A stretch of 50,523 bases of DNA, from IMG/VR virus record IMGVR_UViG_3300044515_000029, positions 1 through 50,523 of that record, one strand, 5' to 3'. Of the stretch, positions 174 through 49,557 are shown piece after piece. The DNA is from a virus. Its lineage: Duplodnaviria; Caudoviricetes. The notes under the pieces were generated by a model that was not told where the DNA came from, did no database searches, and worked only from the letters and a program-made list of their open reading frames with translations. Made by a program: the position numbers and the translations under genes. Position 1 is the stretch's first letter. Every line of letters begins with the position of its first letter.

Positions 174-1160
174 TCATGATGCGGGCTTCGCTTTTGTCGG
201 CTTGCGGCGATAGAAACGCTTGGTCGTTTCGGTCGATGCGTGACCCAGCCGGTCACGCGCTTCCTCAATGGTATCCGCCTCGTCAGCCGACACGCTGCGC
301 AGGTCGTGGAACGTGAACCATTGGCCTCCAGCTTTGGCGTGCTTGAGCATCAGCCGCCGCCAGTTCTGATAGAACCCGCTTCCCGAGTAGGGCTTGCCGT
401 TACCCTTGCGGATCAAATATTCTCGCGGGATCTGCGGCGACATAGCATCCGAGCGAGCAATCAGCGTCTCGACGGCCGGGCTCATTTCCATGATCAATTC
501 AGCTTCTGTCTTGCCCTGCTGAACGTAGATCCCATCCTTGCGGATATCCGAGCGCTTGAGCTTCAACAGGTCGGCGCGCCGCTGACCAATCATCACCGCC
601 CAGTCGATCGCGAGGCGCATCCGAGGATTCGCCAGTTTCTTGACCATCTCGACCTGCTCCATGGGTACGTACGGCCGCTTGCCAGCCTTCTCGGGAAGCT
701 CGATCCCAGTAACCGGATTGATGGACGCCGCACCCCATCGTTTCGCCTTTTTGTAGACGTGGCCCAGGAGCACGATCTCATGGCGGGCAGCGATCGGCAC
801 CGGCCGACCGTCCTTCGACTTTCTGGCATCCATGTAGGTGTATAGATTGACGGCGGTCACGCTGTCAGGCAGGAAATGGCCCAGTGCTATCTTGAGGCGA
901 TCGAGAGACCTTCCTTCCTCTTTGCGCGTTTTCTCGCTCTTCTTGAGCGCGAGCACTTCGATCCGGTACCGGTCGATCACATCTCCGAGCGTGCGCAGGC
1001 TCCACGTGTTTCCAATCAGCGCGCTGTATTTAGCGAGCGCCTCTCCCAAATCCCTACCCAGCGGAATCCGTGGTTTCTTGCCGTCTCGATAGTAATAGGC
1101 GCCGTGTTCGAGGTAGACCTTCGCCGGTAAGTGCCTGTCAGAGCGCCTATTTCTACCCAT
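174..1160 (-). CDS. int: Tyrosine recombinase (phage integrase)
   Basis: GQRRADL, FHDLR, LGH...TKRFY catalytic motifs; adjacent to att site. Confidence 0.95.
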   Translation of the reverse strand: MGRNRRSDRHLPAKVYLEHGAYYYRDGKKPRIPLGRDLGEALAKYSALIGNTWSLRTLGDVIDRYRIEVLALKKSEKTRKEEGRSLDRLKIALGHFLPDSVTAVNLYTYMDARKSKDGRPVPIAARHEIVLLGHVYKKAKRWGAASINPVTGIELPEKAGKRPYVPMEQVEMVKKLANPRMRLAIDWAVMIGQRRADLLKLKRSDIRKDGIYVQQGKTEAELIMEMSPAVETLIARSDAMSPQIPREYLIRKGNGKPYSGSGFYQNWRRLMLKHAKAGGQWFTFHDLRSVSADEADTIEEARDRLGHASTETTKRFYRRKPTKAKPAS

Positions 1161-1770: not shown

Positions 1771-2093
1771 AGATCGCGCCTCGGGTACCGGCAGCGCCCC
1801 TCGGCGTAGTTCACGTCGTAGAGATCCTTGTGCCGCTGTCCGCGGACGTTCCAATTATCGACGGCGTTAAATTCGATCTCGGCTATTTCAGTAAACCAGC
1901 AGCAGATTCCCTCTGCCTCGGGACCATCGGCTCCGCACTCGTGACAGAACACCCACGCGCTGACAAAGACGCCATCGTCCGACGGCAGAGGCGCCGGCAT
2001 GTTGACCCATTCGACCCGCTTCTCATCGAGCCATTTTGCAATCAGCGAGGGCGGCCCGCCGCAAAAAGGGCAGGGAAGTAGGGTGACGCTCAC
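1767..2093 (-). CDS. Lar-family restriction alleviation-like protein
   Basis: LLPCPFCGG...VFCHECGADGP...AVDNWN motif; GTG start. Confidence 0.75.
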   Translation of the reverse strand: MSVTLLPCPFCGGPPSLIAKWLDEKRVEWVNMPAPLPSDDGVFVSAWVFCHECGADGPEAEGICCWFTEIAEIEFNAVDNWNVRGQRHKDLYDVNYAEGRCRYPRRDL

Positions 2094-2272
2094 TTCGCTA
2101 CCTCGAATTCGCGCCGCTCGCTGTATAGCTTGTTTCCGCCAGCATCGAAAAACGTGACGAGCGCATCCCAGTGAGGCGCGAGCCGAATGTCTGATATCTC
2201 CCAAGTCTTTGGCGTAGGCCAAGATCCTTCATGCTTGGAAGACAGTTGGACCAATTCTTCGCTGCCTCTCAC
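2090..2272 (-). CDS. Hypothetical phage protein
   Basis: Coupled overlaps in leftward operon. Confidence 0.5.
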   Translation of the reverse strand: MRGSEELVQLSSKHEGSWPTPKTWEISDIRLAPHWDALVTFFDAGGNKLYSERREFEVAK

Positions 2273-2541
2273 TTCGCGAACTCCACCACCGCACCAAACG
2301 GTAACTGCAACGCGTTAAAAGCTACGTCTGGCGGGAATTCGACCGTAACCCGCACTCGGTCACCCTTGCACTTGCGAACGGCGCAAATCGCTCCGCGTAA
2401 GCCTCCGTCGCCGTGCGCTGCAATCCGGCATTTAGGCGAGCAGAACTTTTGATGCGGCCGCCCGGGCGTGAATTCTTTCGAGCAGTGCGGGCAGACCGGC
2501 CGCGGCCCTAGAATTACTTTCAGATCTTGACTCAGGCTCAT
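2269..2541 (-). CDS. Zn-finger hypothetical protein
   Basis: CPHCSKEF...QKFCSPKC. Confidence 0.6.
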   Translation of the reverse strand: MSLSQDLKVILGPRPVCPHCSKEFTPGRPHQKFCSPKCRIAAHGDGGLRGAICAVRKCKGDRVRVTVEFPPDVAFNALQLPFGAVVEFAK

Positions 2542-2543
2542 CT

Positions 2544-2723
2544 CTAAAACCCCTCGAATTCTGTCAGCGCTTCTACTTCGTCTTGAGTCATCCAAACGTC
2601 CTCAATCTCGTACTCGGTTTCGCCATCGGCGGTCATGTCGGGAACGTCGCGCGGCTCGCAGATACACACCGGGCCTCGCGTGCCCTTGATTTTTACCCTG
2701 ACGTAGCGCTGTTTTTGCTGCAT
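2544..2723 (-). CDS. Hypothetical protein (59 aa, not in ORF track)
   Basis: MQQKQRYVRVKIKG...EYEIEDVWMTQDEVEALTEFEGF fills the operon gap. Confidence 0.55.
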   Translation of the reverse strand: MQQKQRYVRVKIKGTRGPVCICEPRDVPDMTADGETEYEIEDVWMTQDEVEALTEFEGF

Positions 2724-2749
2724 GTACGGCAGTTCGTTACGGACTGCGG

Positions 2750-2998
2750 TTATGGCTTGCGATCCGTTGCGGCATCAGACTGAGAGCAAGTGCAAGCCAC
2801 CAACCCGCCCCCGGTTTTTGTGACTTCACATTCGGGACCGTGGACGCGCCGACAGCTTTTGCACCACGCGGTTTTAGGCGTGCCGCGCGAGGCGGGAAAA
2901 TGCGCGTAGTGCCCGCAAACCAACTCGAAACAATTCGTAGCGCCGCCCCGATTGCGATGGGCTAGGTTAGGAAGCGCCCGCTTAACGGCGACTTTCAT
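2750..2998 (-). CDS. Cys-rich hypothetical protein
   Basis: LVCGH...WCKSC...HGPEC...CTCS. Confidence 0.5.
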   Translation of the reverse strand: MKVAVKRALPNLAHRNRGGATNCFELVCGHYAHFPASRGTPKTAWCKSCRRVHGPECEVTKTGGGLVACTCSQSDAATDRKP

Positions 2999-3222
2999 CA
3001 CGTGACAGTTCCTCCGCTGGCAGGAGAGGCGGCAACCGCAACCATGTGCACGTGATAAGGCGCTATTGCGCATTCAGGAAACGGGCACTTGAACGGCTTG
3101 GACCGCTCCGCATCCTCCAAGGCCAGTTGTATCAGACGCGACTGGACTATCTGCAAACACTCCCGCTCATTCGTAAGCAATTCGGTGAGCAGCGCTTCGA
3201 TGCGTTTAAGTCTTTTGAACAT
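2998..3222 (-). CDS. Hypothetical protein
   Basis: MFKRLKRIE coiled coil followed by CPFPEC..YHVH. Confidence 0.5.
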   Translation of the reverse strand: MFKRLKRIEALLTELLTNERECLQIVQSRLIQLALEDAERSKPFKCPFPECAIAPYHVHMVAVAASPASGGTVT

Positions 3223-3463
3223 CAACCTCTCCATCGACAGCAGCGCGATCTCGAGAGGCGCGAAAAACACGCTCCCGCCACTCGCGCGGGACAAGAACAA
3301 AACCAGCGTCCGCAATCTTCTTGGATGCCTCGGGGCCAAGCGCGGTAACTAGATCGTCATGGGTCATGATGATGCCGCCGCCGGCAAGTACCGACTCCAT
3401 GCCGCCATTGTCCCAAGCGGCGCGGTTCGCTTCGCGCTGCACGAATGGGTCGTTTTCGATCAT
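3206..3463 (-). CDS. Hypothetical protein
   Basis: GGAGA SD; AGFVLVPRE motif common in phage early proteins. Confidence 0.55.
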   Translation of the reverse strand: MIENDPFVQREANRAAWDNGGMESVLAGGGIIMTHDDLVTALGPEASKKIADAGFVLVPREWRERVFRASRDRAAVDGEVDVQKT

Positions 3464-3759
3464 TGCTTCTCTCCTGTTTCGGCTTTTCCATCGTTCGATG
3501 AACCTCTGCGGATTCTCTTCATGTGCTGCGCCAGTTCGCGCATCGTGACCGACACCGCGCCGGCCTCAATGGCAAGGGCCCGCTTCGATTGCGCGATGTC
3601 GTAATGCGGGAAGCTCGCGGGCGGGGACGCTTGTAACCATTTTCGAGCAATGCCGATTTTGCCGGCAATCGCGTGCAGCTCGGGCAGCGTGTCGGCGATC
3701 ATGTGACACATGAGCATCCGGCCGAACGGGTTGCGGGCCTGGTCGACGTAGACGCTCAT
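3460..3759 (-). CDS. DUF4031-family protein
   Basis: MSVYVD...MCHMIADT..ELHA.A.KIG...HYDI...RALAI. Confidence 0.8.
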   Translation of the reverse strand: MSVYVDQARNPFGRMLMCHMIADTLPELHAIAGKIGIARKWLQASPPASFPHYDIAQSKRALAIEAGAVSVTMRELAQHMKRIRRGSSNDGKAETGEKQ

Positions 3760-5390
3760 GCAACCTCCGCGGCCGCGATCCTGCCGGCGAAGTTCGCGCG
3801 CACCATGGCGCATGACATGACTCGGCAGACGCTGTTTCCGGCCATCCGCACCTGTGCCGTCTTTGATAGGTGCTTGCCGTTGATGATCGGGTCGATTTTG
3901 TAATCCGGAGGGAAGCTCTGCGCGTTGAACAGTTCGCGCGGGGTCAGCATCCGCATCCCGATATCGGCGATGTAGTATTTGTCGCCCATGACGGTTACCA
4001 GGCCAAATCGGTCTTTTGTCGTGACCGTCCCGAGCGGAATTTCTAGGCGAGGATTTTGGTCCGTCCCATAATACTTAAGCAGAAAGGCGTGGACTAAGGC
4101 GTGATGGTCAACAGAAGTTATGGTGCTCATGGGTTCGCTCGGATGCAGGCCCGGTCGTTGACCGTTGTCCCCGTAGTGCTTTGCGATGAATGCGGCGACC
4201 ACTCCGTGCTTGACGCCGCCGGCTACTGCGGTTCCGAGTGGCTTCTGCAGGTCAAGCGTGCGCGGCGCTTGGCCGTTCCGCTCGCCGTATCCGGTCTGAA
4301 TCAGCGTAGGCGCTATAAGGGCGAGCTCGCCGCGGTGGGCGCCCGTAATCGTCGGCAGCGGCTCAGCGGTAGAGTGCGCGCGGCGGTCTCCGTGATGGGT
4401 CAGCGGCGCAATGATTGGCGATACCAGGCAGAACTTTGGATCGGCGGTTTGCGTCGGCAGCGGGTCAGTCAACTGAGACGCACGCGACTCATTGCCCTTG
4501 AGCCCATGGAACGCCGATATGATCGGGGTTACTAGGGCGTGGTGTAAGCCTCCCGCGCTCACCGTGCTTAATGGTTCCTCGACCGGCTTCGCGCTGGCGT
4601 CAACGTGGGCCGTGTCCGTGCCGCGCATGGTGACAATGAACGGCTTGGGATTGTTGACCACGTAGCGCGTGATCCCTCGGGCGATCCGGCGCAACGTCGC
4701 ATCGGCCAGCGGCTTGCTGCGCTCGAATATGGACGGGCAGGGGATTGACCAGTCGATGCAGTCGGCCGCGGTCACGTAAGGTAGCAGCCCAGGTCCGTGC
4801 GTCTCCTCTGGCCATACGATCGGCCGGCCATCGCAGCGAGCGATGATGTATAGGCGTTTGCGAGTCGTGCCGGCGCCATACTTGGCAGCCACCAGCTCGC
4901 GCATGTCGAGTTCGTAGCCGAGGTTTTGGAGCATCTTGCACCAGCGACGAAAGGTGAAGCCCTTGCGGATATTGCAAGGCGTTCCGTCTTCGAGCAGCGG
5001 CCCCCATGTAGCGAACTCGCTGACGTTTTCGAGCATGATGATGCGAGGCCGCACGGCCTTTGCCCATTTAACGACGACCCAGGCCAGGCCGCGCACGCGC
5101 TTCGACACAGGCTTTCCGCCTTTCGCTCGAGAGAAGTGCTTGCAGTCGGGAGAGAACCATCCCAAGCCCACGGGACGGCCTTGCGTGACCTCCAGAGGAT
5201 CGGCCTCCCACGCGTCTTTGCAATAGTGCTTCGTGCGCGGATGATTCGCTGCGTGCATCGCAACCGCTTCGGGGTCGTGATTGAGCGCGATGTCGATCGG
5301 TCTACCGATCGCCTCTTCAATTCCGGTACTCGCACCGCCGCCGCCGGCAAAGTAGTCGATTACCAATTCGTTCGGATCTAAATCAATCAT
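3756..5390 (-). CDS. DNA (cytosine-5)-methyltransferase
   Basis: Motif I DYFAGGGG, catalytic SPDC, ENV, RKRLY, motif X AGNSV; variable region with PLxTxT repeats. Confidence 0.93.
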   Translation of the reverse strand: MIDLDPNELVIDYFAGGGGASTGIEEAIGRPIDIALNHDPEAVAMHAANHPRTKHYCKDAWEADPLEVTQGRPVGLGWFSPDCKHFSRAKGGKPVSKRVRGLAWVVVKWAKAVRPRIIMLENVSEFATWGPLLEDGTPCNIRKGFTFRRWCKMLQNLGYELDMRELVAAKYGAGTTRKRLYIIARCDGRPIVWPEETHGPGLLPYVTAADCIDWSIPCPSIFERSKPLADATLRRIARGITRYVVNNPKPFIVTMRGTDTAHVDASAKPVEEPLSTVSAGGLHHALVTPIISAFHGLKGNESRASQLTDPLPTQTADPKFCLVSPIIAPLTHHGDRRAHSTAEPLPTITGAHRGELALIAPTLIQTGYGERNGQAPRTLDLQKPLGTAVAGGVKHGVVAAFIAKHYGDNGQRPGLHPSEPMSTITSVDHHALVHAFLLKYYGTDQNPRLEIPLGTVTTKDRFGLVTVMGDKYYIADIGMRMLTPRELFNAQSFPPDYKIDPIINGKHLSKTAQVRMAGNSVCRVMSCAMVRANFAGRIAAAEVA

Positions 5391-5713
5391 GCTTCAATCT
5401 CCCGGCCCGATTTAGTGCGCAAGGTCACGTTGCGCAGTCGAAGCCTCAAATGAATTGTTTCGAGAACAGCCTCGGCGTGTGCCTGTCGAATCTGTTCTCG
5501 CGTCCAGCCTGGAAGGTCGGCGCGGCCGTCGACAACGTCATGGCAAGCGCTGCATCCGTTCGCCGTGAAAATGTCGTGCGGCTTGATGCTCGCGCCCGCG
5601 CCTAGCCTTTGGCTGCGGTAGTGCGCCCCGACGGTTGTCTCAATCTGAGAGTTGCAGCACGGTAGGCGAATCGTGCAGTGCGCGTTGCGCGCAAACTCGG
5701 TTAAGTAGCTCAT
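5387..5713 (-). CDS. DUF1364/YbcO-like nuclease
   Basis: AR..HCTIRLPCCN...ETTV.AH...CSACHDVVDGR. Confidence 0.8.
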   Translation of the reverse strand: MSYLTEFARNAHCTIRLPCCNSQIETTVGAHYRSQRLGAGASIKPHDIFTANGCSACHDVVDGRADLPGWTREQIRQAHAEAVLETIHLRLRLRNVTLRTKSGREIEA

Positions 5714-17337: not shown

Positions 17338-17935
17338 AAGAAGACGCCCGGTACGATTACGTCGAAGTGCAGTCTGACCCGCGACCTGTTGTCGCGCGCA
17401 TGTACTCACGTCCTGCCGGGCGTTTTTCTCCACGTCGGCACGGAACGATCACGCTGCCGACCGGCAGGCCGAGGATTCTCGATTGCGCTGCGCTACCGAT
17501 GCAGTCCTACCTGCAAGAGCGTTTCTCGCACGTCGGCAGCCGCAGCCACGCTGCCCGGCTGCTGCAAGCTGAGAATAAACGCCGTTATGATGCGGCCGCT
17601 GCTAGGGGAAACCTGCCGCGGTCTCGAAGTTCCGGCGAATGGCATCCGATCACCGCCGCTGAAATTGCGGCAGGCCTGTCAACGCTACGGGACGATCACC
17701 CGAGAAACGGCCGAACGCCGCCGGCAATTGAATCCGACTTGTTGCCGATGAGGCGCAGACGCCCCAAAATTCAACACCACCGCGCGAAAGTAGGTAAGGC
17801 GTAAAGCTAAGCCTTCCCCTTCGGGGCAGAGCGGTATCAATCGCGGCGCCGGACGAACTACCGGCAGAAAAAGAACCGGCCGTAAGGTCCGGCAGCACAG
17901 CCGCAACTCATACCCGCCATAGAGCGGGTTTTTTT
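17338..17935 (+). ncRNA. Candidate ~600-nt structured RNA or late-operon leader
   Basis: About 13 consecutive stems with G-U pairs; UUCG, GAAA and GUAA loops; repeated CGA loops; ends in a terminator. Overlapping ORF 17331..17804 is unconvincing. Confidence 0.5.
17912..17935 (+). terminator. Intrinsic terminator
   Basis: ACCCGC-CATAGA-GCGGGT-TTTTTT. Confidence 0.85.
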
Positions 17936-17971: not shown

Positions 17972-18499
17972 ATGTTCTCGAATTTCCGTAAGTCACTGAT
18001 GAGCGTGTTCGCCGCGGCCGCGGTGTTCACGATTCTGAGCCTCTCGCCGCCCCCGGCAGAAGCCGGCGCAATGTCGAATTTCCTGACGAACAAGGTTATC
18101 GACTTCATCATGCGCGGCCAGGCGTACACGCCGCCGACGACCGTGTTCGTCGCGCTCGCGACTGGCGCGGGAAGCTCTGCCGCTTGCGGCACCGAAGTGA
18201 CCGGCGGCTCTTATGCGCGCGTTGCGGTCACGAGCTCGCTCACCAACTGGGCGGGCACTCAAGGCGCGACTACGACCGCAGTCTCAAGCGGTTCCAGCGG
18301 GCAGACGTCCAATAACGCGACGATTACATTCCCATCGCCTACGGCGAACTGGGGAACCGTCATCGAGTTTTGTGTGCTGGATGCCAGCTCGGGCGGCAAT
18401 TTGCTCTGGCGCGCATCGCTGACCACGTCGAAGACTGTAAATAATGGCGATGCCGCCCCGTCCTTTGCGATCAGCGCGCTGACTTGGACTCTCAACTAG
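17972..18499 (+). CDS. Small beta-rich fibre subunit with predicted signal peptide
   Basis: GGAG SD; MFSNFRK-hydrophobic-AEA/G; mature part TVFVAL.T..GTEV.GGSYAR..V...ITFP.PTANWGTV is a recognisable phage fibre-subunit pattern. Confidence 0.7.
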   Translation: MFSNFRKSLMSVFAAAAVFTILSLSPPPAEAGAMSNFLTNKVIDFIMRGQAYTPPTTVFVALATGAGSSAACGTEVTGGSYARVAVTSSLTNWAGTQGATTTAVSSGSSGQTSNNATITFPSPTANWGTVIEFCVLDASSGGNLLWRASLTTSKTVNNGDAAPSFAISALTWTLN

Positions 18500-18518
18500 T
18501 ACATGCCGGAGAATCATA

Positions 18519-20096
18519 GTGAGCCCTCCGTCGAGACTCGAAATCTCGATTCCGACCGCATCTTTCGACGGGGTTTTTCACGGCAGATACCCTCATGGAG
18601 ATGCGCCAGCAGGCCCTGTTCTACAGGGCGCTGCGGCTGACGCTACGTCGGCCAGCGGAGTGCTAACCACTAGCGGCGGCGGCGCTCCAATACCAACGCT
18701 TTTTATCTCGACCACGGGAAGCGACTCGAACCCAGGAACGCTGGCGCAGCCTTGGGCGATCACATCGCTGCTGTCTAACAGCGCGAATCAAGCATCGATG
18801 GTCGGCCAGGTCATTGGCATGGTAGCGGGCACCTACGCGACCAGCGGCATGCAGAGCACGACATCACCGGGTTCCTTTGATACCCCGGTTCTGACTTTGC
18901 CGCAGGGCTCTGCTGGCAATATCACGACATTGGTCTCTTGCAATTCGAGCGGTGTTTACACGCAGCGCGTGGCGATCCTCGATAACTCATCGAGCACGTC
19001 TGGCAACCCGCTCATCGGCCAAGATCCAAGTCACGCAGGATTTTGGGCGCTCGACGGACTGACCATTAAGGGGAATCCGACCAATGCGGCGGCTGTCTTC
19101 ATGGTGACTGGCCGCTACGCAGCGAGTACTACGGGAGGCACTTCCTTCGCCGCATCCAACATCACGATTCAGAACTGTGAGATTTTCAGTTTCACGACGA
19201 CCAGCAACGGAGGATCGAATTCCGGCGGCGTTATCATGCAGGGAACTACCGGCACGAAGTTCCTGAACAACTATGTTCACGACATCGTAGCCACCGGCAG
19301 CGCGACCAACATAGAGCACTGTCATGGTTACGAGGAATTCGGCTGCATAAATTCCGTCATTCACTTCAACACCTTCGCCAATTGCCAGGGCGCAGCAGTC
19401 GACATTAAGACCGGATGCTCTGGGCAGGATATTGCGAACAACTATTTCTATCTGTGTGGCACGACAGATGGCGGTAACGGCTCCGGCGCAATCACGGGAT
19501 GCGATGGAGCGGAGGGAAACCCGAATACCCCAGGAACCTCCTACTCAATCCATCACAACATCTTCGATAGCTGCAACTCGGAGATCTCGACCGATGTAAA
19601 CAACGTCAGAGAGCAAAGCGGAAGCACGTTTAATAACACGATCTATAACTCTCGGGCTGGATCAATCAACCCGATCAATTTTCGAGTCTTGAACGGCGCG
19701 TCATGGCAGTTGTTCAACACCATCCTAGTGACGACCGCTAATAGCAGCGGCGGCGGAAATGCTGGCTCAGGCGGCGTAGCGCTCACCACTGGCGGATGGT
19801 CGAATGTGAAAAATAACTGCTATTTCCTGCACTCAAGCAGTTCGATGTGGGGACAAAGCGGAACAAATTTCAGTTCTCTATCCGCCTGGCAGGCCGCCAC
19901 CGGATCGCCAGATGCCAACTCGATTGCGGCAAATCCGGTGTTCTCTTCTGCCATTACTCCTGGCAATGGCACGACGCAGTTTCAACTTGGGAGCGGCTCG
20001 CCATGCTTGGGGACGGGCGTAGGTGGCGTGAACATGGGGGCGTGGGATGGAACCGTTACGCAGATCGGCTGCAACTTTGAAACTGCGGTGAGCTAA
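18519..20096 (+). CDS. Right-handed beta-helix (pectate lyase-like) spike or depolymerase
   Basis: FIST.GSDSNPGT.AQPW, repeated NN/NT stacks, C-terminal FQL.SGSPCLG.G...MGAW. Confidence 0.75.
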   Translation: MSPPSRLEISIPTASFDGVFHGRYPHGDAPAGPVLQGAAADATSASGVLTTSGGGAPIPTLFISTTGSDSNPGTLAQPWAITSLLSNSANQASMVGQVIGMVAGTYATSGMQSTTSPGSFDTPVLTLPQGSAGNITTLVSCNSSGVYTQRVAILDNSSSTSGNPLIGQDPSHAGFWALDGLTIKGNPTNAAAVFMVTGRYAASTTGGTSFAASNITIQNCEIFSFTTTSNGGSNSGGVIMQGTTGTKFLNNYVHDIVATGSATNIEHCHGYEEFGCINSVIHFNTFANCQGAAVDIKTGCSGQDIANNYFYLCGTTDGGNGSGAITGCDGAEGNPNTPGTSYSIHHNIFDSCNSEISTDVNNVREQSGSTFNNTIYNSRAGSINPINFRVLNGASWQLFNTILVTTANSSGGGNAGSGGVALTTGGWSNVKNNCYFLHSSSSMWGQSGTNFSSLSAWQAATGSPDANSIAANPVFSSAITPGNGTTQFQLGSGSPCLGTGVGGVNMGAWDGTVTQIGCNFETAVS

Positions 20097-21319
20097 TGCT
20101 TAAAAGAATTGTAGCGATCGCGTTTATGGCACTCGTGCCGGCGTTGTCATGGGCGAATTACGCCTTTGTGAGCCAAGCGCAGAATGCATCAAACGGCAAT
20201 ACGGTCACTGTGTCGCCGGCGGCTGGACATTTCCTAATTGTTGTGTCTCAGACCAGCGCCGGCGGTGGCACGCCTACCGCCTCGATATCGGACAATCTAG
20301 GAGATACCTGGACTGTTGGCAAAGCGACGTCTCAGGACGGAACTATAGCCAATAACTTTTTCTCAATATTCTACTTACCGGTCGCGCCCGCCGGCATAAC
20401 AACTATCACCCTTACCTACGCTGGCGGAACGCCTGGTGCCGCGAATATCGCCTTTGTCGAATATAGCGGTCTTTCCTCCACTGGATTCCAGGGCGTCTCA
20501 ACCTTCAATCAGCAGCAAAATCCTGGAACCGCAACCAATGCGATTACGACTAACAACATCAATGTCGCCACGCAACCTGGGGCATTGATTGGATGGTTCA
20601 ATGACGGGGCTGGCAGCGGTGGTTGGACTGCCGGAACGTCGCCGCTTACGTTTACCATGCGCGTCAACGGCAGCTTCAACATGCTGGAGGACGCGCGCGT
20701 TACGGCGACCGGCAACGCTTTGGCGAATGCGACCAGCACTCATGGTACGACCCAGACGTATATAACCTACGCGATATTCATTGCTGAGCCATCATCAGGC
20801 GGTGGTGCGGCGCTGGCATCTGCCGCAACCGATGCGGTTACCGCCGTGGGTGCGCTAACGACTGTATCATCGGCCTTCGTTCCGCTCCTGCTCGACAACG
20901 CCTCGCGCTCTGACAATCTTTTGCTTGGCACCGCGCCGGGCGACGGAACGGGAGACAGCGCTCGCATTGGCGGAACGAAGCTCAAGCAATGGGCGGCCGA
21001 TGCGAACGCCATGTTCTCGCAGCTCTACCCGAACCGCAGCCTGCAGACGCCGACGACTGGTTTCTCTATTGCCGCCTCGATTGGCGTCACTCAACTCGTT
21101 CTCAATCCGGCGGGCACGCTGGCAACGGGTACGGTCACGCTGCCGACTCTGCCCGGCGATAATCAGCCGTTCACGCTCATGACGTCTCAGACGGTCACCA
21201 CGTTGACCGTCAACACGGCGGACACAAGCACCATCAACGGCGCGCCGACCACGATCAGCGCTAATACGAGCGTCAAATTTCGGTACATAACCTCGCTGAA
21301 TAGGTGGTTCCGCGAATAG
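20096..21319 (+). CDS. Fibre-associated protein with signal peptide and DGTGD motif
   Basis: MLKRIVAIAFMALVPALSWA/NY; GTAPGDGTGDSAR...MFSQLY resembles the T4 gp9/gp10 N-terminal motif. Confidence 0.7.
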   Translation: MLKRIVAIAFMALVPALSWANYAFVSQAQNASNGNTVTVSPAAGHFLIVVSQTSAGGGTPTASISDNLGDTWTVGKATSQDGTIANNFFSIFYLPVAPAGITTITLTYAGGTPGAANIAFVEYSGLSSTGFQGVSTFNQQQNPGTATNAITTNNINVATQPGALIGWFNDGAGSGGWTAGTSPLTFTMRVNGSFNMLEDARVTATGNALANATSTHGTTQTYITYAIFIAEPSSGGGAALASAATDAVTAVGALTTVSSAFVPLLLDNASRSDNLLLGTAPGDGTGDSARIGGTKLKQWAADANAMFSQLYPNRSLQTPTTGFSIAASIGVTQLVLNPAGTLATGTVTLPTLPGDNQPFTLMTSQTVTTLTVNTADTSTINGAPTTISANTSVKFRYITSLNRWFRE

Positions 21320-21333
21320 CAGGAGCCTAAAGC

Positions 21334-22914
21334 ATGGCTTTATGGACGTTCGACTCTTCGGCGGTCACGTTTGATTCGACTTCTGCGACATTCGACGGAT
21401 CACAGGGCGGCGGGGGAGGGGCGGCGCTTGCCGGCGCATCAACCGATGCGGTCACGGCGGCAGGCGGGCTAATCAATTTCGCGAGCGTCACGCTCGTGGC
21501 GCCGCTCTACACCGGGGTAGGGGGCATATTCGACCCGAACCTCGTATGGCCGTTCTCGACGCCTGTCGTCGGGAGCGTGGTCAAGTACGATCCGGCAGCT
21601 ATCACCGTGCTGCCAGACGGCCAAATAAATGCGACCGCGAACAACGTCGCGGCTGAGATTCAGTATTTCGACGGCGTCAATCTCAATGAGATAGACGTTT
21701 TCATCACGCCGACGATGGTCGGCTACGCCTTTGACGGCACGATCGCCTCGGGCACTTTCGTAGGCGCTGCGGCCCTCGCTGCTGCTGCTGCGAATCTATC
21801 GAGCGCTGCCGGCGTACTGACGACCGGAATACCGCTACAGGCGGCAGCCTCAAACCTGACGTCGGCGGTCGGCGCGCTCAACACCGCGATCCAATTGGCG
21901 TCCGCTGCCTCGGATTCATCGAGCGCGAGTGCGCTGCTCGGTGCTGTAGGCGCGAACCTGGCGGGGGCTGCAACCGACACGAGCAGCGGGAACGCCTCGC
22001 TGACGACGCTGATCGCGGTTGCTGGTGCGGCTGCTGATGTCGCGAGCGCTGCGGCGGCTCTGTCGACCGCGATTCAACTGGCAGCCCAGGCCACTGACTC
22101 GACCACCGCGTCAGGCCCGATTCGCACGAACATCCTGTTTATCGGCGCGGCGACTGACTCTATCAGCGGCGCGGGCCTCTTGGGCTCGATACAGGTACTT
22201 CAAGCCGCGGCGAACGATGTAACGACTGCGTTCGGCAGCCTGATTACTCAGATTGCACTCGCGGCGGCGGCGAGCTCGACCAGCATCGCGGCCGGTAGCC
22301 TGACATCGCAGATCAAGCTATCCGGATCCGCGACCGATTCAGTCACCGCAAGCGGCGCCCTGGGCGTCCTCGCGCTCAACTTAAGGCCGTCGCATTTGAT
22401 AGTCACATCGTTCTACAGCAACCAGCTTCTCGGCCAGGCGGGACCGCTGCCGTATGGCGAGTTTTTCTCGAGAGTGGATGATGTCGAGATTTACGCGATC
22501 GACTGGACCGGCTGGCTCACTAATTTTTGGGAGCGCGGCGCGATGGTTGCGCCCGGCTCGGTGATTCGACCGACTGCGCCGAACGGCTTCCAGTTCGTCA
22601 CGACCCTGGGCGGGCAGTCCGGCAATGCAGAGCCGGTATGGCCGAACGCAATCGGTCAGATGGCTACTGACGGCAGTGTCGTCTGGACTTGCGAGGCGAT
22701 CGACCTCAACTCGCTTTTCGCGAACGTGCAAAGCGCCGAATGGGTAGTTCAGAGCGGCATCACCGTGAAGGGACAGGAACAGTCGGGGAATCTCACGCTC
22801 GCGGAGCTCGACGCCACGGGCGCAACGGCAGGCCAGAACTACGCGGTCAACGTCGAAACGACGATGAGCGACGGCGAAACCAAGGTAGGCCAGATCGTCC
22901 TCAAGGTTCGATAA
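21334..22914 (+). CDS. Fibre scaffold/adaptor with 12 copies of a 20-aa Ala-rich repeat
   Basis: TFDS repeats at N-terminus; LxGAATDxxxAxGxLT repeats; C-terminal YAIDW.GWL and EPVWP...TDGSVVWT. Confidence 0.7.
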   Translation: MALWTFDSSAVTFDSTSATFDGSQGGGGGAALAGASTDAVTAAGGLINFASVTLVAPLYTGVGGIFDPNLVWPFSTPVVGSVVKYDPAAITVLPDGQINATANNVAAEIQYFDGVNLNEIDVFITPTMVGYAFDGTIASGTFVGAAALAAAAANLSSAAGVLTTGIPLQAAASNLTSAVGALNTAIQLASAASDSSSASALLGAVGANLAGAATDTSSGNASLTTLIAVAGAAADVASAAAALSTAIQLAAQATDSTTASGPIRTNILFIGAATDSISGAGLLGSIQVLQAAANDVTTAFGSLITQIALAAAASSTSIAAGSLTSQIKLSGSATDSVTASGALGVLALNLRPSHLIVTSFYSNQLLGQAGPLPYGEFFSRVDDVEIYAIDWTGWLTNFWERGAMVAPGSVIRPTAPNGFQFVTTLGGQSGNAEPVWPNAIGQMATDGSVVWTCEAIDLNSLFANVQSAEWVVQSGITVKGQEQSGNLTLAELDATGATAGQNYAVNVETTMSDGETKVGQIVLKVR

Positions 22915-23502
22915 ATGACCGAATCCTACAAGACCGCGAGAGAGAAGATTGACGCAGCGCTGAGCCGTGCTCCGGTTCGCAAAGTCGTCATCCTTAAGCG
23001 CGGCTCTGACGGGTTATTCATTCAGCCGACGACCACGGGAGCCGAGTACGAGTTTGAGGAAGCGCACAGGCGCATGGCCTTCGCTGAGGGCTACAAGTAC
23101 GCGGACGAGACTACCGGCAACACCCGCACGTTCGACCCGAAAGGGAATTACATCTGCGGCGAGTGCAACAAGGCCGATGACAAGCCATACGCCCTCTGCC
23201 TGTTCGTCTGCCAGGACGGCAAGCCACTCTCCGCGATTGATATCGACCGCAAGGCCGGAAGCTGCGGGTACTGGGAGGACACATGCGCGGGAGACCCCGA
23301 GCTCAAGAATCCTCAGAAGCCCGAGACCGTGGCCGTGTACGGAGTAGCGAAGAACGGCGAGGGATTTGGCTGTCATCGTTGTCCCTTCGCTTCTGATGCG
23401 ATTGCGCCGGATAGCCGAGGCAGAAAGCTCTACTGCGGGAAGGGATCGTTTCGCGTTGCTTGGAATGCCTGCTGTGAGTTGAACGGAGCGCCGACGGTAT
23501 GA
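22915..23502 (+). CDS. Cys-rich protein with two HiPIP-like motifs
   Basis: CGEC...C...GSCGYW and CHRC...C...ACC. Confidence 0.6.
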   Translation: MTESYKTAREKIDAALSRAPVRKVVILKRGSDGLFIQPTTTGAEYEFEEAHRRMAFAEGYKYADETTGNTRTFDPKGNYICGECNKADDKPYALCLFVCQDGKPLSAIDIDRKAGSCGYWEDTCAGDPELKNPQKPETVAVYGVAKNGEGFGCHRCPFASDAIAPDSRGRKLYCGKGSFRVAWNACCELNGAPTV

Positions 23503-33006: not shown

Positions 33007-34548
33007 ATGGGTCAAATAGTTCCGGCCGGTTCGATCAATCTCGCCGCGCAGGTAGTGCCAGGCGTCACCGTCCAGGTGCAACCGCCTGCAACGCAGTTCA
33101 TCAACGGGGTACCGACGAACGGTCTTGGCATCGTCGGCACTGCGTCATGGGGTGCGGTCAATAGCCCCGTGAATTTCGGGACTCCCGCCGAGGGCCAGGC
33201 GCAATTCGGCCCGCTCCAGCCGCGATTGTTTGACCTAATGACGGCGGTCAGCATCGCCGCGCAGCAGGGCGCGAACAATTTCACATGCGTGCGCGTCACC
33301 GATGGCACCGACACCGCCGCCACGGTCGAAGTGCAAGTCAATTGCCTCGCGCTCACGTCGAAGCACACCGGCTCATTCGGCAACAGTACGAAAGTGACCA
33401 TCGCGGCCGGCTCCCAGGCCGGAACGTTCCAGGTGACGGTAAGCGCTCCGGGACTCGTCCCCGAGAACTTCAACAACATTGGCGCCGGATTGGCCGGCAA
33501 CGCGTTATGGGTGGCGATTGCCAATGCCATCAACAACGGCAACACCGCATTGCGCGGCCCGTCTCAGATCGTCGTGGCGAGCGCAGGCGTTGGCACGACT
33601 GTCCCGGCCCCCGCGACTCTATCCCTTGCCGGCGGCACCGATGGCGTGGCAAACATCACGACCGCCACAATGGTAGGCGTCTCGACCACGCCGCGGAGCG
33701 GAATGTCCGCGCTGCTCAATACGGGCATCAGCGTGGCAATGCTCGCCGACCTCGTCGACGAGACGAGCTTCCCCTCGCAGATCGCCTTCGGCCTCGCGAA
33801 CGGCGTTGAAATGGTTGGCGTCAGCGTCTCGGGCGATCAGATTTCGACCGCGATTGCAAATAAGGCGTCGAACGGCGTCGACAGCTTCGCCTTTAAATTG
33901 CTATTCGGCGACTGGGTGTTCTGGCTCGACACCGTGAACAATCAGCAGCGGCTCGTGAGCCCTCAGGCTTTCGCTGCTGGCGAGCTTGTGTCTCTATCCC
34001 CGCAGAATTCGCCGCTGAACAAGCAACTGCAGGGAATCATCGGCACGCAAAAGTCGATGAGCAATCAGCAGTATTCGAACGCCGACCTGCAGGCACTCAT
34101 CGGCGCCGGCATCGACGTGATCGCGAACCCCTCGCCGGGCGGTTCGTACTTCTCCTTGCAGTCGGGACACAACTCGAGTTCGAACCCACTGCAGCACGGC
34201 GATGCGTACACGCGGATGATAAATTTCCTGTCGACGACGTTCCTCGCCGGAATGGGTATTTTCGTCGGCCAGCTCGACAGCCCGACAGTGCAGGCGACCA
34301 TTCTCGCGACGTTGAGCGCGTTCCTCGACAACCTGGCGGATCAGGGAATGATCGGCAACTCTCAGGGAACCACGCCGTACAGCGTGACCATCGACCCGGC
34401 GCTCAATCCGCCCTCGCAGATTGCGCTCGGCAACCTGCAGATCAGCGCGCAGGTGCAATTCCTCGCGGTCATCGAGAACTTGATTATCAACGTCCAGGGC
34501 GGCTCGTCGGTGCAGGTCGCATCGGTCGGCGTCACCCCGCAGCAGTAA
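33007..34548 (+). CDS. Tail sheath protein
   Basis: PGVTVQ, GIVGTASWG.VN.P, CVRVTDG, LAGGTDG, sheath-type C-terminus. Confidence 0.9.
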   Translation: MGQIVPAGSINLAAQVVPGVTVQVQPPATQFINGVPTNGLGIVGTASWGAVNSPVNFGTPAEGQAQFGPLQPRLFDLMTAVSIAAQQGANNFTCVRVTDGTDTAATVEVQVNCLALTSKHTGSFGNSTKVTIAAGSQAGTFQVTVSAPGLVPENFNNIGAGLAGNALWVAIANAINNGNTALRGPSQIVVASAGVGTTVPAPATLSLAGGTDGVANITTATMVGVSTTPRSGMSALLNTGISVAMLADLVDETSFPSQIAFGLANGVEMVGVSVSGDQISTAIANKASNGVDSFAFKLLFGDWVFWLDTVNNQQRLVSPQAFAAGELVSLSPQNSPLNKQLQGIIGTQKSMSNQQYSNADLQALIGAGIDVIANPSPGGSYFSLQSGHNSSSNPLQHGDAYTRMINFLSTTFLAGMGIFVGQLDSPTVQATILATLSAFLDNLADQGMIGNSQGTTPYSVTIDPALNPPSQIALGNLQISAQVQFLAVIENLIINVQGGSSVQVASVGVTPQQ

Positions 34549-41208: not shown

Positions 41209-42327
41209 ATGGCGGTTTCGACCAACACATTCTCGCAGTTCGTGCAGAACTCGGTCGCGGCGATTCAGGGAATGGCCTCGCAGCTTCTCGACCTTACCGT
41301 GGGTTCGGTGCTGCGCTCGTTTGTGGACGCATACTCGCTGCTCGCGCTCTGGCTGCAGGCGGAAATACTGCAAGTCGCGGCGCTCACGCGCTTTGCAACG
41401 AGCTTCGGTGCTGACGCGGATAGCTGGGGAGCGCAATTCGGCTTTGATCGAGAGGATGGAAATCCTGCGTCAGGAACGGTTACCTTTTCTCGCTTCACGC
41501 CGACAGCGCAGGCGACCGTCGCCGTCGGTACCGTCGTGCAGACGCAGACCGGCGTGCAATACGGCGTCATTGCCGACACGACGCAGCCGTCGTTCAACGC
41601 GACGCTCAATGCCTACGTGCTCCCGGCCTCGACCTCGAGTATCACCGCGACCGTTGAGGCCCTTGTGTCAGGCGCCTCTGGCAATGCCATCGCCGGCTTT
41701 ATCAACGTTCTCGGCTCGTCGATTCCTGGCGTCGATACGGTCACGAATGCCGCGGCGTTCCAGAACGGAAACGATCCGCAAACCGACGAGGAATATAAGG
41801 CCGGGTTTCCTGGCTTCCTGCAGTCGCTTTCAAAGGGCACGCCCGCCGCTATTGCGTTTGCCATTCAACAACTCGGCGAAAACGTCGATTTTACCTACAC
41901 CGAAAATGAGAACCGCGACGGGACATTCAACCCCGGCTTCTTCTTCGTGATCGCAGACGATGGCACGGGAAACCCATCCTCGGGATTCCTTGCGACCGTC
42001 GGCGCCGCAATCGAGGCGGTGAGAGGGGATAGCATCACTTTCGCGGTATTCCCGCCGACGATTGTTACCGCAAATGTCGCGATGGTCATCACGACTGACG
42101 GCAGCGTTGTGCACGCGGCCGCGGTTGCCGCCGTTGAGGCCGCGATCGAAGCGTTCATAAATGCGCTACCTATCGGCGCGACGTTGCCATTCAACATCCT
42201 GCCGAGCATCGCCTTCGGCGTGCAGGGGGTGACGAATGCCACCGGAATCACGCTCAACGGCGGAACCGCTGACATCAACACGACCGCGCAGCAGATTATA
42301 AAGGCCGGAACAGTAGCGGTATCCTGA
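41209..42327 (+). CDS. Baseplate J-like protein
   Basis: GSVLRS, ASGTVTFSR, VEA..SG.SGN, G.D.QTD.EY. Confidence 0.9.
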   Translation: MAVSTNTFSQFVQNSVAAIQGMASQLLDLTVGSVLRSFVDAYSLLALWLQAEILQVAALTRFATSFGADADSWGAQFGFDREDGNPASGTVTFSRFTPTAQATVAVGTVVQTQTGVQYGVIADTTQPSFNATLNAYVLPASTSSITATVEALVSGASGNAIAGFINVLGSSIPGVDTVTNAAAFQNGNDPQTDEEYKAGFPGFLQSLSKGTPAAIAFAIQQLGENVDFTYTENENRDGTFNPGFFFVIADDGTGNPSSGFLATVGAAIEAVRGDSITFAVFPPTIVTANVAMVITTDGSVVHAAAVAAVEAAIEAFINALPIGATLPFNILPSIAFGVQGVTNATGITLNGGTADINTTAQQIIKAGTVAVS

Positions 42328-42328
42328 T

Positions 42329-43240
42329 ATGGCAACGGGCGATCAGTCTGACATTCTGAACCGTTTGCAGCGGCTCATGCCGCCGGGGTGGTTTGCGCCT
42401 GGACAGACGCCGATCCGCGACGCGCTGCTGACCGGCATCGCTAACGCTCTGGCGTTCGTTTTCTCGCTGTTCACTTACCTGAAATTGCAGACGCGCATCG
42501 CGACCGCGACCGATGGGTTCTTGGACCTGATCGCATTCGATTACTTCGGAAACTCTCTGCGGCGCCTGCCGAATCAAAGCGACGCGAGCTATCAATCGAG
42601 AATTCAGTCGTCTCTATTGCCGCTGCGAAATACGCGACAGGCGATCATCAACGCCGTGGCTCTCGTCACCGGACGGCCGCCGATAGTGTTCGAGCCTCGG
42701 CGTCCCCTCGATACCGGCGTTTATAACGGCCCAGGACTTGCGTATAGCGCAGTCGGCGGGTACGGCTCTCTTGCCTATCCATATCAGTCATTTGTGACCG
42801 CATTCCGGCCCGCCGGCACTGGAATACCGAACGTTGCCGGCTACGGCATCTCGACCGGCGCTTATAACACCGGCTCGCAAGCCGAGTATGCGACTGCAGA
42901 ATTCACCAGCGGCGTGAACGATGACGACATCTACGCGGCGATAAACAGCGTCAGACTGGGCGGAACGATCGTATGGACGCGCATCATCAGCAGCTTGGCA
43001 GAGCTGAACGCTGGCAACGTCATCGACAACGGCATCCCGGCGCTTGTTGGCGCCGCCTCTGATGTCTCTGTTGCGTTCGGCAATCTGACCGGCGGCAGGG
43101 CTCAACTAAGCGGCGCTGCGACGGATACGACCACGGCCACCGCCGATCTCATCGCCGGAAGGTTCCCATTGATCGCAGGTTACGGCGTGCCACAGGGCGC
43201 CTATAACACGCCGTCGCGCGCAGCTTACGGCCCGCTTTAG
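42329..43240 (+). CDS. Baseplate wedge (I-like) with C-terminal repeat insertion
   Basis: QTRIATAT..FLDLIA.DYFG..L.R...SD.SY..RI. Confidence 0.8.
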   Translation: MATGDQSDILNRLQRLMPPGWFAPGQTPIRDALLTGIANALAFVFSLFTYLKLQTRIATATDGFLDLIAFDYFGNSLRRLPNQSDASYQSRIQSSLLPLRNTRQAIINAVALVTGRPPIVFEPRRPLDTGVYNGPGLAYSAVGGYGSLAYPYQSFVTAFRPAGTGIPNVAGYGISTGAYNTGSQAEYATAEFTSGVNDDDIYAAINSVRLGGTIVWTRIISSLAELNAGNVIDNGIPALVGAASDVSVAFGNLTGGRAQLSGAATDTTTATADLIAGRFPLIAGYGVPQGAYNTPSRAAYGPL

Positions 43241-43263
43241 TTCACTGATTTAGGCAAACAACG

Positions 43264-43286
43264 ACCCCGCTCAATGCGGGGTTTTT
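43264..43286 (+). terminator. Intrinsic terminator
   Basis: ACCCCGC-TCAAT-GCGGGGT-TTTT. Confidence 0.75.
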
Positions 43287-48142: not shown

Positions 48143-49225
48143 TCAATTTATCGACCGTAGCGAAAACGTAGCGTTTTTTGCTACGTTTTTCACGAACGGC
48201 GCCTCCTCGACGGGCCTCGATACCTGCCGCTCAATGCGTCCGGCCACGAAGGAGAGTTTCTCCGGGGCCAGGTGCGCATAGCGCAGCACCATCTCGTACG
48301 ACTTCCATCCGCCCAGTTCCATCAGCTCCGGCAACGAAGTGCCGCTCTGCACGTGCCACGAGGCCCAGGTGTGCCTCAGGTCGTGGAAGCGGAAGTCCTC
48401 GATGCCGGCGCGCTGTTTCGCCATGCCCCACGCAGTGGAGCTTTGCTGGATGCGCTTCCCTGAGAAGGTAAAGCACCAGCGCGGGTGCTGTCCCCGCGTC
48501 GCTTCGAGCGCTGCCACGGCGTCCGCATTCAAGGGAATGCCGCGGCCGTCACCCGACTTCGTCGTACCGTGATCGAGCCAGGCCACTTTGCGGTTAAGAT
48601 CCACGCGGCTCCATTCGAGCCCCAGGATCTCACCCGCTCGACAGCCGGTCGAGAGCGCAAACTCCACGATCGGCTTCATGTGCTCTGGCAAGGCCTCGAT
48701 CAATCGGTCAGCCTCCTCGCGTCTCAAGAAGCGCACGCGCCGCCGGGGTTCCTTCAGCATCCGAATCTTCGGCACCCCTTTGAGCCATCGCCAGTCCTGA
48801 TGCGCGACATTCAATATCCGCCGAACCACCTCGAGTGCGCGATTGACCGTCGCGTTCGAGACACCATCCTTCAATTTGCGATCGCGAATGAACGGCTGTA
48901 AGACCGTCATGTCGATCGCATCGACTTTCAGGGACCGAAGATAAGGGTCGAGCTTCTTCAGATGATCCTTATCATCCGAGAGGCTCCTCTTGTCCGCGAA
49001 CTCCTCGAGATATCGCACGACCGCTTGCTGCCATACGAAAATGCCGAGGAGCCCCTGCTGCTTCGCTTCAATTGCTTCGTTCTTCAGGCGGACTACGTAG
49101 CTTTCTGCATCGGTGCGATTGATACACCCAGTGCTTTGGCATACGCGGCGTCCATCCGGGAGAACGAGGCCAATCCACCAGAACCGCGAATCCTTGCGGC
49201 GGTAGAGTCCACGTTCACGGGCCAT
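48143..49225 (-). CDS. int: Tyrosine recombinase (integrase)
   Basis: TGCRAGE, TKSG, FHDLRHT.AS, LGGW...MVLRYAH. Confidence 0.95.
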   Translation of the reverse strand: MARERGLYRRKDSRFWWIGLVLPDGRRVCQSTGCINRTDAESYVVRLKNEAIEAKQQGLLGIFVWQQAVVRYLEEFADKRSLSDDKDHLKKLDPYLRSLKVDAIDMTVLQPFIRDRKLKDGVSNATVNRALEVVRRILNVAHQDWRWLKGVPKIRMLKEPRRRVRFLRREEADRLIEALPEHMKPIVEFALSTGCRAGEILGLEWSRVDLNRKVAWLDHGTTKSGDGRGIPLNADAVAALEATRGQHPRWCFTFSGKRIQQSSTAWGMAKQRAGIEDFRFHDLRHTWASWHVQSGTSLPELMELGGWKSYEMVLRYAHLAPEKLSFVAGRIERQVSRPVEEAPFVKNVAKNATFSLRSIN

Positions 49226-49557
49226 AAAGTCTCCTTCCAGGCCCGCCCTCGGCACTTATCCTGCTGCATTCGTGCATCGAGATCAATGCGGTCATAGACT
49301 TTGCAGCGGCCCTTGCGGATGAAGGGCAGTTCCATGCCATCGAGGAAGCGCAGACTGCAGCGGACGTAGGCTGCGGCTTCACGGCGGGTGAGATAGCGAG
49401 AGGGCGCGGCAGCTGGCGGATCTTCTTGGACGGCGCTGGAAGACTTTGGACGCGATAACGGTGACGGCAGCGCCGGCGTCGAGAAATCGAGCGGCAACTG
49501 TCCCGAAGGCGCAGAGGATTCTTGTCGTGACAGCGAAATGTTCGTCCGAGTTGGCAT
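49093..49557 (-). CDS. Excisionase-like HTH protein overlapping int
   Basis: YLTRREAAAYVRCS...LPFIRKGR..VYDRIDLDA; start uncertain. Confidence 0.6.
   Translation of the reverse strand: MPTRTNISLSRQESSAPSGQLPLDFSTPALPSPLSRPKSSSAVQEDPPAAAPSRYLTRREAAAYVRCSLRFLDGMELPFIRKGRCKVYDRIDLDARMQQDKCRGRAWKETLWPVNVDSTAARIRGSGGLASFSRMDAAYAKALGVSIAPMQKAT

Follow-up and report, generated by a model that had tools for sequence, protein, structure and literature searches.

A predicted beads-on-a-string fibre module in a temperate contractile-tailed phage, with a rope motif shared by a baseplate protein

The DNA analysed here, referred to as the window, is the whole of the IMG/VR virus record IMGVR_UViG_3300044515_000029 (50,523 bases, 60% G+C; CheckV completeness 100%), and our subject is its segment 17972..22914, which contains four open reading frames (ORFs). 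Taken as a whole, we consider it probable that this segment encodes a beads-on-a-string fibre (whisker) of the kind found in phages GP4, A1002 and Bas63, and that a 20-amino-acid (aa) tag repeated along the rope of this fibre also recruits beads elsewhere.

Contents of the module and its shared motif

The main features of the four ORFs, and those of a baseplate protein (the wedge) that carries the same motif, are the following:

17972..18499 (plus strand), bead subunit, Gp80 family, 175 aa, starting at ATG 17972 (the listed ORF begins at TTG 17960)
17972..18064 (plus), Sec-type signal-peptide-like N-terminus of the bead: basic n-region, hydrophobic core and Ala-x-Ala end
18068..18490 (plus), Gp80 domain of the bead (Pfam PF23140)
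18519..20096 (plus), beta-helix-type protein: N-terminal anchor, one motif, Gly linker and variable body
18519..18614 (plus), conserved N-terminal anchor of the beta-helix ORF, aa 1-32
18615..18671 (plus), motif copy of the beta-helix ORF, aa 33-51, PVLQGAAADATSASGVLTT
20096..21319 (plus), two-domain protein ORF 20096, with a motif in the inter-domain linker
20096..20155 (plus), signal-peptide-like N-terminus of ORF 20096, n-h-c type with an Ala-x-Ala end
20807..20863 (plus), motif copy of ORF 20096, aa 238-256, AALASAATDAVTAVGALTT
21334..22914 (plus), rope-collar protein, ORF 21334
21343..21402 (plus), W-TFD x3 tag (three TFD units) at the N-terminus of the rope
21421..21477 (plus), single motif copy of ORF 21334, aa 30-48, AALAGASTDAVTAAGGLIN
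21478..21708 (plus), small beta domain of the rope, 77 aa
21709..22371 (plus), 11 head-to-tail motif units of ORF 21334, 19-21 aa each, aa 126-346
22372..22911 (plus), Gp77-like collar anchor with an inserted subdomain, 180 aa
42329..43240 (plus), wedge, a baseplate protein lying between Baseplate_J, which it follows directly, and a fibre-like ORF
42329..42994 (plus), wedge family core, aa 1-222 (phrog_26379 covers 1-219 of 219)
42995..43237 (plus), C-terminal extension of the wedge, 81 aa: a linker, the motif twice and a repeat of an internal segment
43037..43096 and 43097..43156 (plus), two adjacent motif copies in the wedge extension, aa 237-276

A previous reading of the sequence only had reported a motif of some 20 aa in the beta-helix protein, ORF 20096, ORF 21334 and the wedge, and translation finds a copy at every position that it had given, with the 20-aa consensus xxLxGAAxDxxxAxGxLxTx. 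A hidden Markov model (HMM) built from the 11 tandem units only was searched against the 1017 six-frame stop-to-stop pieces of at least 30 aa in the window, and its top matches outside the array were exactly the other three named proteins: the beta-helix ORF (20.9 bits, E 1.7e-5), the wedge (17.4 and 11.9 bits, sequence E 1.4e-5) and ORF 20096 (13.6 bits, E 9e-4). The best unrelated piece gave a partial match of 10.3 bits (E 0.018). The N-terminal copy of ORF 21334 itself is weak against this model (3.8 bits); its counterparts in related ropes reach 16-19 bits in three of four cases (P0122, P0124 and P0125) and 5 bits in the other (P0123). No tandem DNA repeats underlie the motif copies anywhere in the window, and a blastn comparison of the wedge extension with the rest of the window returned only chance words of 12-14 nucleotides (nt), so the likeness among the copies is one of protein sequence. 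Additionally, the motif is retained in all four proteins that share the N-terminus of the beta-helix ORF and in a fibronectin-type (fn3) protein from the related locus L005. Judged by these comparisons, the tag is both specific within the window and conserved among relatives. A profile of 16 motif copies had no match at E<=10 among the PDB sequences, so the tag cannot be recognised in the sequence of any solved rope.

Bead, rope and collar anchor

The protein encoded at 17972 had been taken for a small beta-rich fibre subunit, and this is borne out by profile comparison. It matches Pfam PF23140, Gp80 ('Podophage GP4 fiber I protein'), with 142.1 bits (141.7 in a repeat scan; cut-off 27) over profile positions 1-128 of 128, and the solved GP4 chain 8jou_a with E 3e-12 in a search of PDB sequences, being the sole Gp80 match in the whole record. 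By sequence, then, it is a member of the Gp80 bead family, which is large (5478 representative clusters). A GGAG Shine-Dalgarno sequence lies 7 nt ahead of ATG 17972, i.e. before the long, signal-bearing form of the bead, and a signal-peptide-like start is also present in 24 of the 150 best Gp80 representatives, about one in six. Many Gp80 representatives (among P0134-P0280) are tandem fusions with two or three bead domains per chain (260-360 aa), amounting to covalent dimers or trimers.

The rope gene is situated 2.8 kb downstream of the bead gene. Its product starts with the W-TFD x3 tag, which agrees with the TFDS-type repeats described before for this ORF, and continues with one motif, the small beta domain, the 11 tandem motifs and the C-terminal domain; this repeat anatomy is read directly from the translation. 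A fold of the whole rope was discarded, with a predicted local distance difference test (pLDDT) score of ~30 in the repeats and VIA matches to beta-solenoids only, and the anchor was refolded alone.

Folded alone, the C-terminal anchor gave a model with pLDDT 79.5. All six Foldseek matches to this model at E<=1e-3 were phage neck or collar chains, five from Milano and the other being GP4 8jou_B (E 2.2e-4, template modelling (TM) score, target, of 0.60). VIA-align superposed the model on GP4 gp77 (8jou_B) with Z 10.4 and a root-mean-square deviation of 1.8 Å, 86 of 89 residues being aligned with 26% identity. Other collars gave Z 10.0-10.6 (Milano), 8.3 (7-7-1 collar), 8.0 (Bas63, 9mt4_G) and 7.8 (neck of Sf14, 9c39_J), the last two at the level of generic immunoglobulin (Ig) folds, for which Z was <=7.8; the match to 8jou_B is 2-3 Z units above these. 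According to the model, the anchor thus has the Ig-like fold of the GP4 gp77 collar. Because the rope carries this neck-collar fold at its own C-terminus, the neck is the most likely place for the fibre, a placement in which we have fair confidence; the wedge, which had been proposed as the fibre anchor, is not needed for that purpose.

The anchor also contains an inserted subdomain of ~60 aa (22525..22692, aa 398-453 of ORF 21334), which matches phrog_20658 'head decoration' (E 9e-6) and, structurally, the C-terminal part of the tailspike of Pam1 (Z 8.0 over 57 aligned residues). In a tblastn search with the anchor against cultured phages, the inserted subdomain alone was matched, in two records (a beta-helix protein of a Bacillus phage and a cyanophage ORF).

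Rope-and-bead fibres were first resolved between 2023 and 2026, in a handful of lytic phages. As described in the available parts of the two reports, the rope of GP4 has a gene of its own, carries five gp80 dimers and interlocks with an Ig-like collar (PMC13730344, PMC12609058), and in A1002 each of eleven dimers builds an augmented beta-sheet together with the rope section of the nozzle protein (PMC13730344). The collar protein of Bas63 has an N-terminal rope and an Ig-like collar, with whisker dimers arranged 'like beads on a string', and the rope completes the incomplete sandwich of each whisker (PMC12609058, available part).

The comparison with these systems is based on the same available parts. 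The Fiber I of the Ralstonia podophage GP4 (PDB 8JOU) shares with the window the Pfam family of the bead, an anchor with the gp77 fold and the presence of several bead dimers per rope; however, GP4 is a podophage with a separate rope and collar and five dimers, whereas the phage in the window has a fused rope-collar with 12 sites, a collar insertion of ~60 aa, a sheath, and the tag on other proteins too. Gene product gp79 was considered as the rope of GP4, since it is repeat-rich and lies beside gp80; it is absent from the PDB sequences and no claim is made for it. The Escherichia myophage Bas63 (and Sf14) is similar in having a contractile tail, a rope fused to an Ig-like neck collar and dimers of Gp80-like whiskers as beads, but Bas63 is virulent and has two dimers per collar protein, against 12 predicted sites here, and the part of its account available to us describes no baseplate copy of the rope motif. 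The Pseudomonas podophage A1002 (nozzle-rope gp39, beads gp40 and gp41) has 11 dimers that augment the rope sheet, and the domain order of gp39 (short N-terminal dock, Ig-like domain, long dock and anchor) parallels that of the rope in the window; in this case, however, the anchor is part of a split nozzle rather than a collar, there are two bead proteins and the phage is a podophage. The module combines a rope-collar fusion as in Bas63 with a length like that of A1002. Finally, the Anabaena myophage A-1(L) has beaded neck fibres with genes far from the other structural genes, but there the beads, which come from different protein families, are trimers linked to one another head to tail with no rope, making it a lookalike and not a fibre of the same kind. 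The earlier idea of ORF 21334 as the ruler of a segmented fibre stands insofar as the ORF appears to be a 12-site rope of the GP4/A1002/Bas63 architecture, although the mechanism is already published for this family.

Binding of the bead to the motif was modelled on the wedge, by folding two copies of the mature bead (residues 36-179) with wedge residues 223-303. The complex scored 0.67, compared with 0.40 for the best of three controls, and 116 of 157 solved complexes attained this mark of the fold score, as did 2 of 215 mismatched pairs; contact agreement between runs was at least 79% and the pLDDT of the partner at least 43. The confident interface comprises wedge residues 236-257, which correspond to the first motif, with residues 239-240 on one copy of the bead and 249-253 on the other. 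The contacts with the lowest error join wedge L253, the conserved Leu of the motif, to L154 and F169 of the bead, which are nearly invariant in the family alignment. Since the two segments touch different bead copies, the model suggests that one pseudo-palindromic motif (L.GAA ... A.G.L) would span a bead dimer, with each half-site on one subunit. Our arithmetic on the domain ranges of A1002, as given in the available part of its report (PMC13730344), yields ~24 residues of rope for every dimer, in keeping with a single 20-aa site for each. The proposal that each motif docks a bead by strand complementation is thus supported, for the first wedge motif, by a predicted complex that passes its controls, except that a single motif contacts a dimer instead of one subunit.

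Motif-bearing proteins and relatives of the module

The first ~39-56 aa of the beta-helix ORF are 79-84% identical to those of proteins P0285-P0288, each of which contains one motif. The bodies of P0285-P0287 are unrelated to that of the beta-helix ORF, whereas the alignment with P0288 extends into a related beta-helix body (41% identity, 239 residues), so that at least three unrelated classes of body are found behind the shared N-terminus. A conserved N-terminus in front of unrelated bodies is the usual signature of a virion anchor with interchangeable receptor-binding bodies, and the motif would be part of this swappable anchor. The beta-helix label of ORF 18519 comes from Atlas features alone (0.95-0.96 to the Beta_helix, Pel9A-like and NosD clusters), the protein having nothing in Pfam at E<=1 and no match among PDB sequences; it is likely a glycan-cleaving receptor-binding protein.

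Residues 130-231 of ORF 20096 are 40% identical to a tip domain fused to the rope of locus L006 (E 3e-4 in a small database), and aa 345-407 have a weak match to the StcE beta-sandwich, under the cut-off. A likeness of this protein to T4 gp9/gp10 had been suggested from a DGTGD motif. The letters GDGTGD are present, but no gp9/gp10 family was found in Pfam at E<=0.01, the Atlas leads were weak and the search of PDB sequences gave no match except a weak one to a glycoside hydrolase (E 0.034), leaving the suggestion without support. Likewise, nothing indicates that the proteins with a single motif are fibre tips, as had been proposed, and in the beta-helix ORF the motif sits in the conserved N-terminal anchor.

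The C-terminal domain of the rope is kept in eight homologues with 48-72% identity. Their N-terminal parts vary and are made of the same motif, of other 19-20-aa repeats, of Trp-rich repeats or of acidic repeats. The four ropes of the same type contain 1+11, 1+11, 2+11 and 1+14 motif units, the 11-unit array being present in three of them. A globular N-terminal domain is fused to the end of the rope in L005, L006, P0126 and P0129.

Scans with the rope alignment found two metagenome loci and one viral locus. Locus L005 encodes a bead with 70% identity, a 157-aa protein with the head of the beta-helix ORF, two motifs and the fn3 domain, and a rope of 819 aa that bears a globular domain at its tip. 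In L006, a related provirus, a small ORF that has a signal peptide but belongs to no Pfam family is accompanied by a rope of 590 aa, whose repeats differ, and by a Gp77 anchor of 160 aa in an ORF of its own; L004 contains a 180-aa ORF and a rope-anchor with Trp repeats. All four anchor loci (the window, L004, L005 and L006) have a small ORF ahead of the rope. Downstream of the rope or anchor, the three loci that reach that far have the terminase small subunit, which comes directly in L004 and L006 and after two small ORFs in the window; L005 ends before the terminase position. Both loci with a Gp80 bead (the window and L005) have the motif described here, and the two with other small proteins (L004 and L006), which showed no likeness to Gp80 by hhalign (probability <1%), have other repeats. 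A repeat type that changes with its small neighbour fits cognate pairs of bead and strand, in what are few loci. In L006 (8256..10510), the rope and Gp77 anchor ORFs overlap by one base, and there is a duplicated IEATFQDRL at the end of the rope; the split could be natural, as in GP4, or a frameshift.

The wedge matches phrog_26379, of unknown function, with E 3.3e-88 and phrog_7378 'baseplate protein' with E 3.1e-6, and its precomputed label is PF27728. Its position is that of P2 gpI and Mu gp48, which may be its equivalents. In the Ralstonia phage Hyacinthe, the wedge is 51% identical and has no tail, and neither Gp80 nor Gp77 is found in that phage. Scans for close relatives of the wedge gave one locus in viral contigs and one in genome contigs; no wedge match was found in the L006 record, probably because the contig ends first. 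In L002, a 628-aa protein with a signal peptide (1780..3666) is encoded just before the wedge homologue, with a C-terminal domain as in the following tail-fibre-like ORF (4408..5613); it represents a further exported protein of fibre-like type in this group of phages. The tail end of the wedge in the window (43178..43231, AGYGVPQGAYNTPSRAAY) copies an internal conserved segment of the same protein (42833..42889, AGYGISTGAYNTGSQAEY), with no detectable DNA repeat.

Tags of a different type are present on other wedges. Six wedge homologues (P0005, P0006, P0029, P0013, P0021 and P0023) start with W-(D/T)-(F/A)-D x3 tags, and when a profile of these tags is run over the window, the N-terminus of the rope stands out alone, with 16.9 bits (E 3.7e-5) against 8.0 bits for the runner-up. 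Still other wedge homologues carry L-TE-G tags, either N- or C-terminal. The match of a wedge-derived profile to the rope thus suggests that tags move between the rope and wedge families.

Proposed fibre and alternative explanations

We propose that ORF 21334 is a single-chain rope whose C-terminal Ig-like, gp77-type domain would mount it in a ring at the head-tail neck, and whose 346 N-terminal residues would offer 12 docking sites (1 + 11) of ~20 aa each. Dimers of the jelly-roll-like Gp80 bead would clamp each site, with the rope strand completing the bead sheets by beta-sheet augmentation. The same tag would recruit the same bead dimer to the anchor of the beta-helix protein, to the linker of ORF 20096 and to the C-terminal extension of the wedge, so that beads might decorate the neck fibres and the baseplate alike. 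Among these elements, the mounting ring, the count of beads and the binding at each tag are inferred, one of these tags being backed by the controlled fold. The rope-and-bead core of this proposal is very probably correct, whereas we give about even chances to the docking of beads at the additional tags.

Several observations weigh against this proposal. The signal peptides on the bead and on ORF 20096 fit poorly with cytoplasmic assembly onto a rope that has none; neither the rope nor the beta-helix protein has a signal peptide, and decoration after lysis is one possible way for an exported bead to meet a cytoplasmic rope. The score of the bead-wedge complex may come from the model having memorised GP4-type complexes that are already solved; additionally, the fold of the partner is uncertain (pLDDT 43-45) and, with two bead copies offered, the score covers the first wedge motif only. 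The anchor in the window scores under the cut-off of 27 against Pfam PF23148, Gp77 ('GP4 fiber-tail adaptor'; 24.4 bits, E 4.2e-5), and hhalign of the rope alignment with GP4 gp77 gave a probability of only 22%; its relatives in L006 and L004, with 54% and 47% identity to the window, exceed the Gp77 cut-off with 33.3 and 31.3 bits. The repeat HMM had no matches on the 819-aa rope of L005, though tblastn aligns this rope to that of the window (39%, residues 29-526). Finally, the wedge extension with its motif is present in none of the 119 homologues listed (of 821 found), and the same-type rope P0122 and the tail-less wedge P0083 are each on a JGI contig of 69,254 bp, which is probably one and the same; therefore, the wedge tail is not a constant part of the module.

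An explanation in which the fibre is anchored on the wedge through its two motifs, with one bead monomer per motif and with the beta-helix protein and ORF 20096 as tips, is unlikely. It would account for the two motif copies on the wedge and for the folding of the bead on this protein with a score above all controls, and the globular domains at the rope ends of relatives, one of which (L006) is weakly like ORF 20096, would suit the idea of tips. Nevertheless, the rope has a collar-type anchor of its own and the extension is missing from all the wedge homologues listed. Such an arrangement would also require beads to bridge two strands, yet in the model one motif touches both subunits and one strand fills the dimer.

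We regard it as quite improbable that the bead and ORF 20096 are exported and not built into the virion inside the cell, having instead a role in the envelope (surface change or exclusion) or being added after lysis. The n-h-c signal peptides with Ala-x-Ala ends of both proteins, the Shine-Dalgarno sequence of the long bead form and the signal-bearing Gp80 representatives would agree with export. So would the bead gp41 of A1002, for which the available part of the report describes no density for the first ~30 residues, the authors suggesting cleavage (PMC13730344); this bead is, however, on the virion all the same. Moreover, wherever a structure has been solved, in the accounts available, members of the Gp80 family belong to the virion, and the bead gene lies in a late-strand module together with the signal-less rope and collar.

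That the 20-aa units are a self-folding shaft repeat or a linker of small residues, with copies elsewhere due to shared composition or co-trimerisation, is very unlikely: the units are indeed rich in Ala, Gly, Ser and Thr, and the AlphaFold model of the lone rope is a beta-solenoid matching beta-helix proteins, but the low pLDDT in the repeats makes these matches meaningless, the HMM is specific within a genome of 60% G+C, the repeat type changes with the neighbouring small protein and the bead fold passes its controls.

As regards the proposed rope-and-bead fibre, an extension of it, which we consider doubtful, is that portable strand tags (the 20-aa L.GAA.D...A.G.L, W-TFD x3 and L-TE-G) would form a docking code that is exchanged between the rope of the neck, the baseplate protein and the N-termini of interchangeable receptor-binding bodies, with a bead exported by Sec that clips on after lysis. 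The baseplate protein of the window would have gained the tag of the rope, and the rope bears a tag found elsewhere on that baseplate protein. Under such a code, a given bead or enzyme could be carried on the neck by some phages and on the baseplate by others.

The record thus presents what appears to be a rope-and-bead system in a phage that is temperate and has a sheath, with rope and collar fused into one long protein. A tag on a baseplate protein, a tag in a swappable receptor-binding anchor and signal peptides on beads are features absent from the accounts of GP4, A1002 and Bas63 in the parts available. They suggest that the docking strand is a portable tag, both for recruiting beads to a baseplate protein and as part of the anchor of interchangeable enzyme bodies; if this is true, cargo could be mounted on the virion by no more than a 20-residue peptide, and this would be useful for reading and engineering host range. 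The signal peptides of the bead family are a feature that current structures do not explain.

Genomic setting of the module

The following features, two hairpins and genes identified by scans with PHROG and Pfam, lie outside the module; the scans also found a lambda-like early region and genes for portal, scaffold and major head proteins:

17912..17929 (plus strand), terminator-like hairpin followed by a T-run, 6 pairs, 5 GC, tail TTTTTTATTC
23863, terminase small subunit (PHROG/Pfam scans)
24356, terminase large subunit (PHROG/Pfam scans)
33007..34548, tail sheath (phrog_23, E 2.6e-39)
41209..42327, Baseplate_J (Pfam), upstream of wedge ORF 42329 and among baseplate genes
43263..43283 (plus), terminator-like hairpin with a T-run, immediately downstream of the wedge stop codon, 8 pairs, 6 GC, -18.1 kcal/mol, z -1.96

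There are two tyrosine-integrase-like genes, one close to each end of the record (174..1160 and 48143..49255). The sheath and baseplate genes together with the integrases at both ends identify the source virus, by gene content, as a temperate contractile-tailed phage.

The hairpin at 17912..17929 closes the upstream unit and the fibre module begins after it, so that the four ORFs of the module are bounded by this hairpin and by two small ORFs situated ahead of the terminase small subunit. Between the rope and the terminase small subunit there is a Cys-rich ORF of 195 aa (22915..23502) that belongs to no family in Pfam or PHROG. After the wedge, the ATG of the fibre-like ORF 43274 is located in the loop of the hairpin at 43263..43283, with a GGAGG sequence just downstream.

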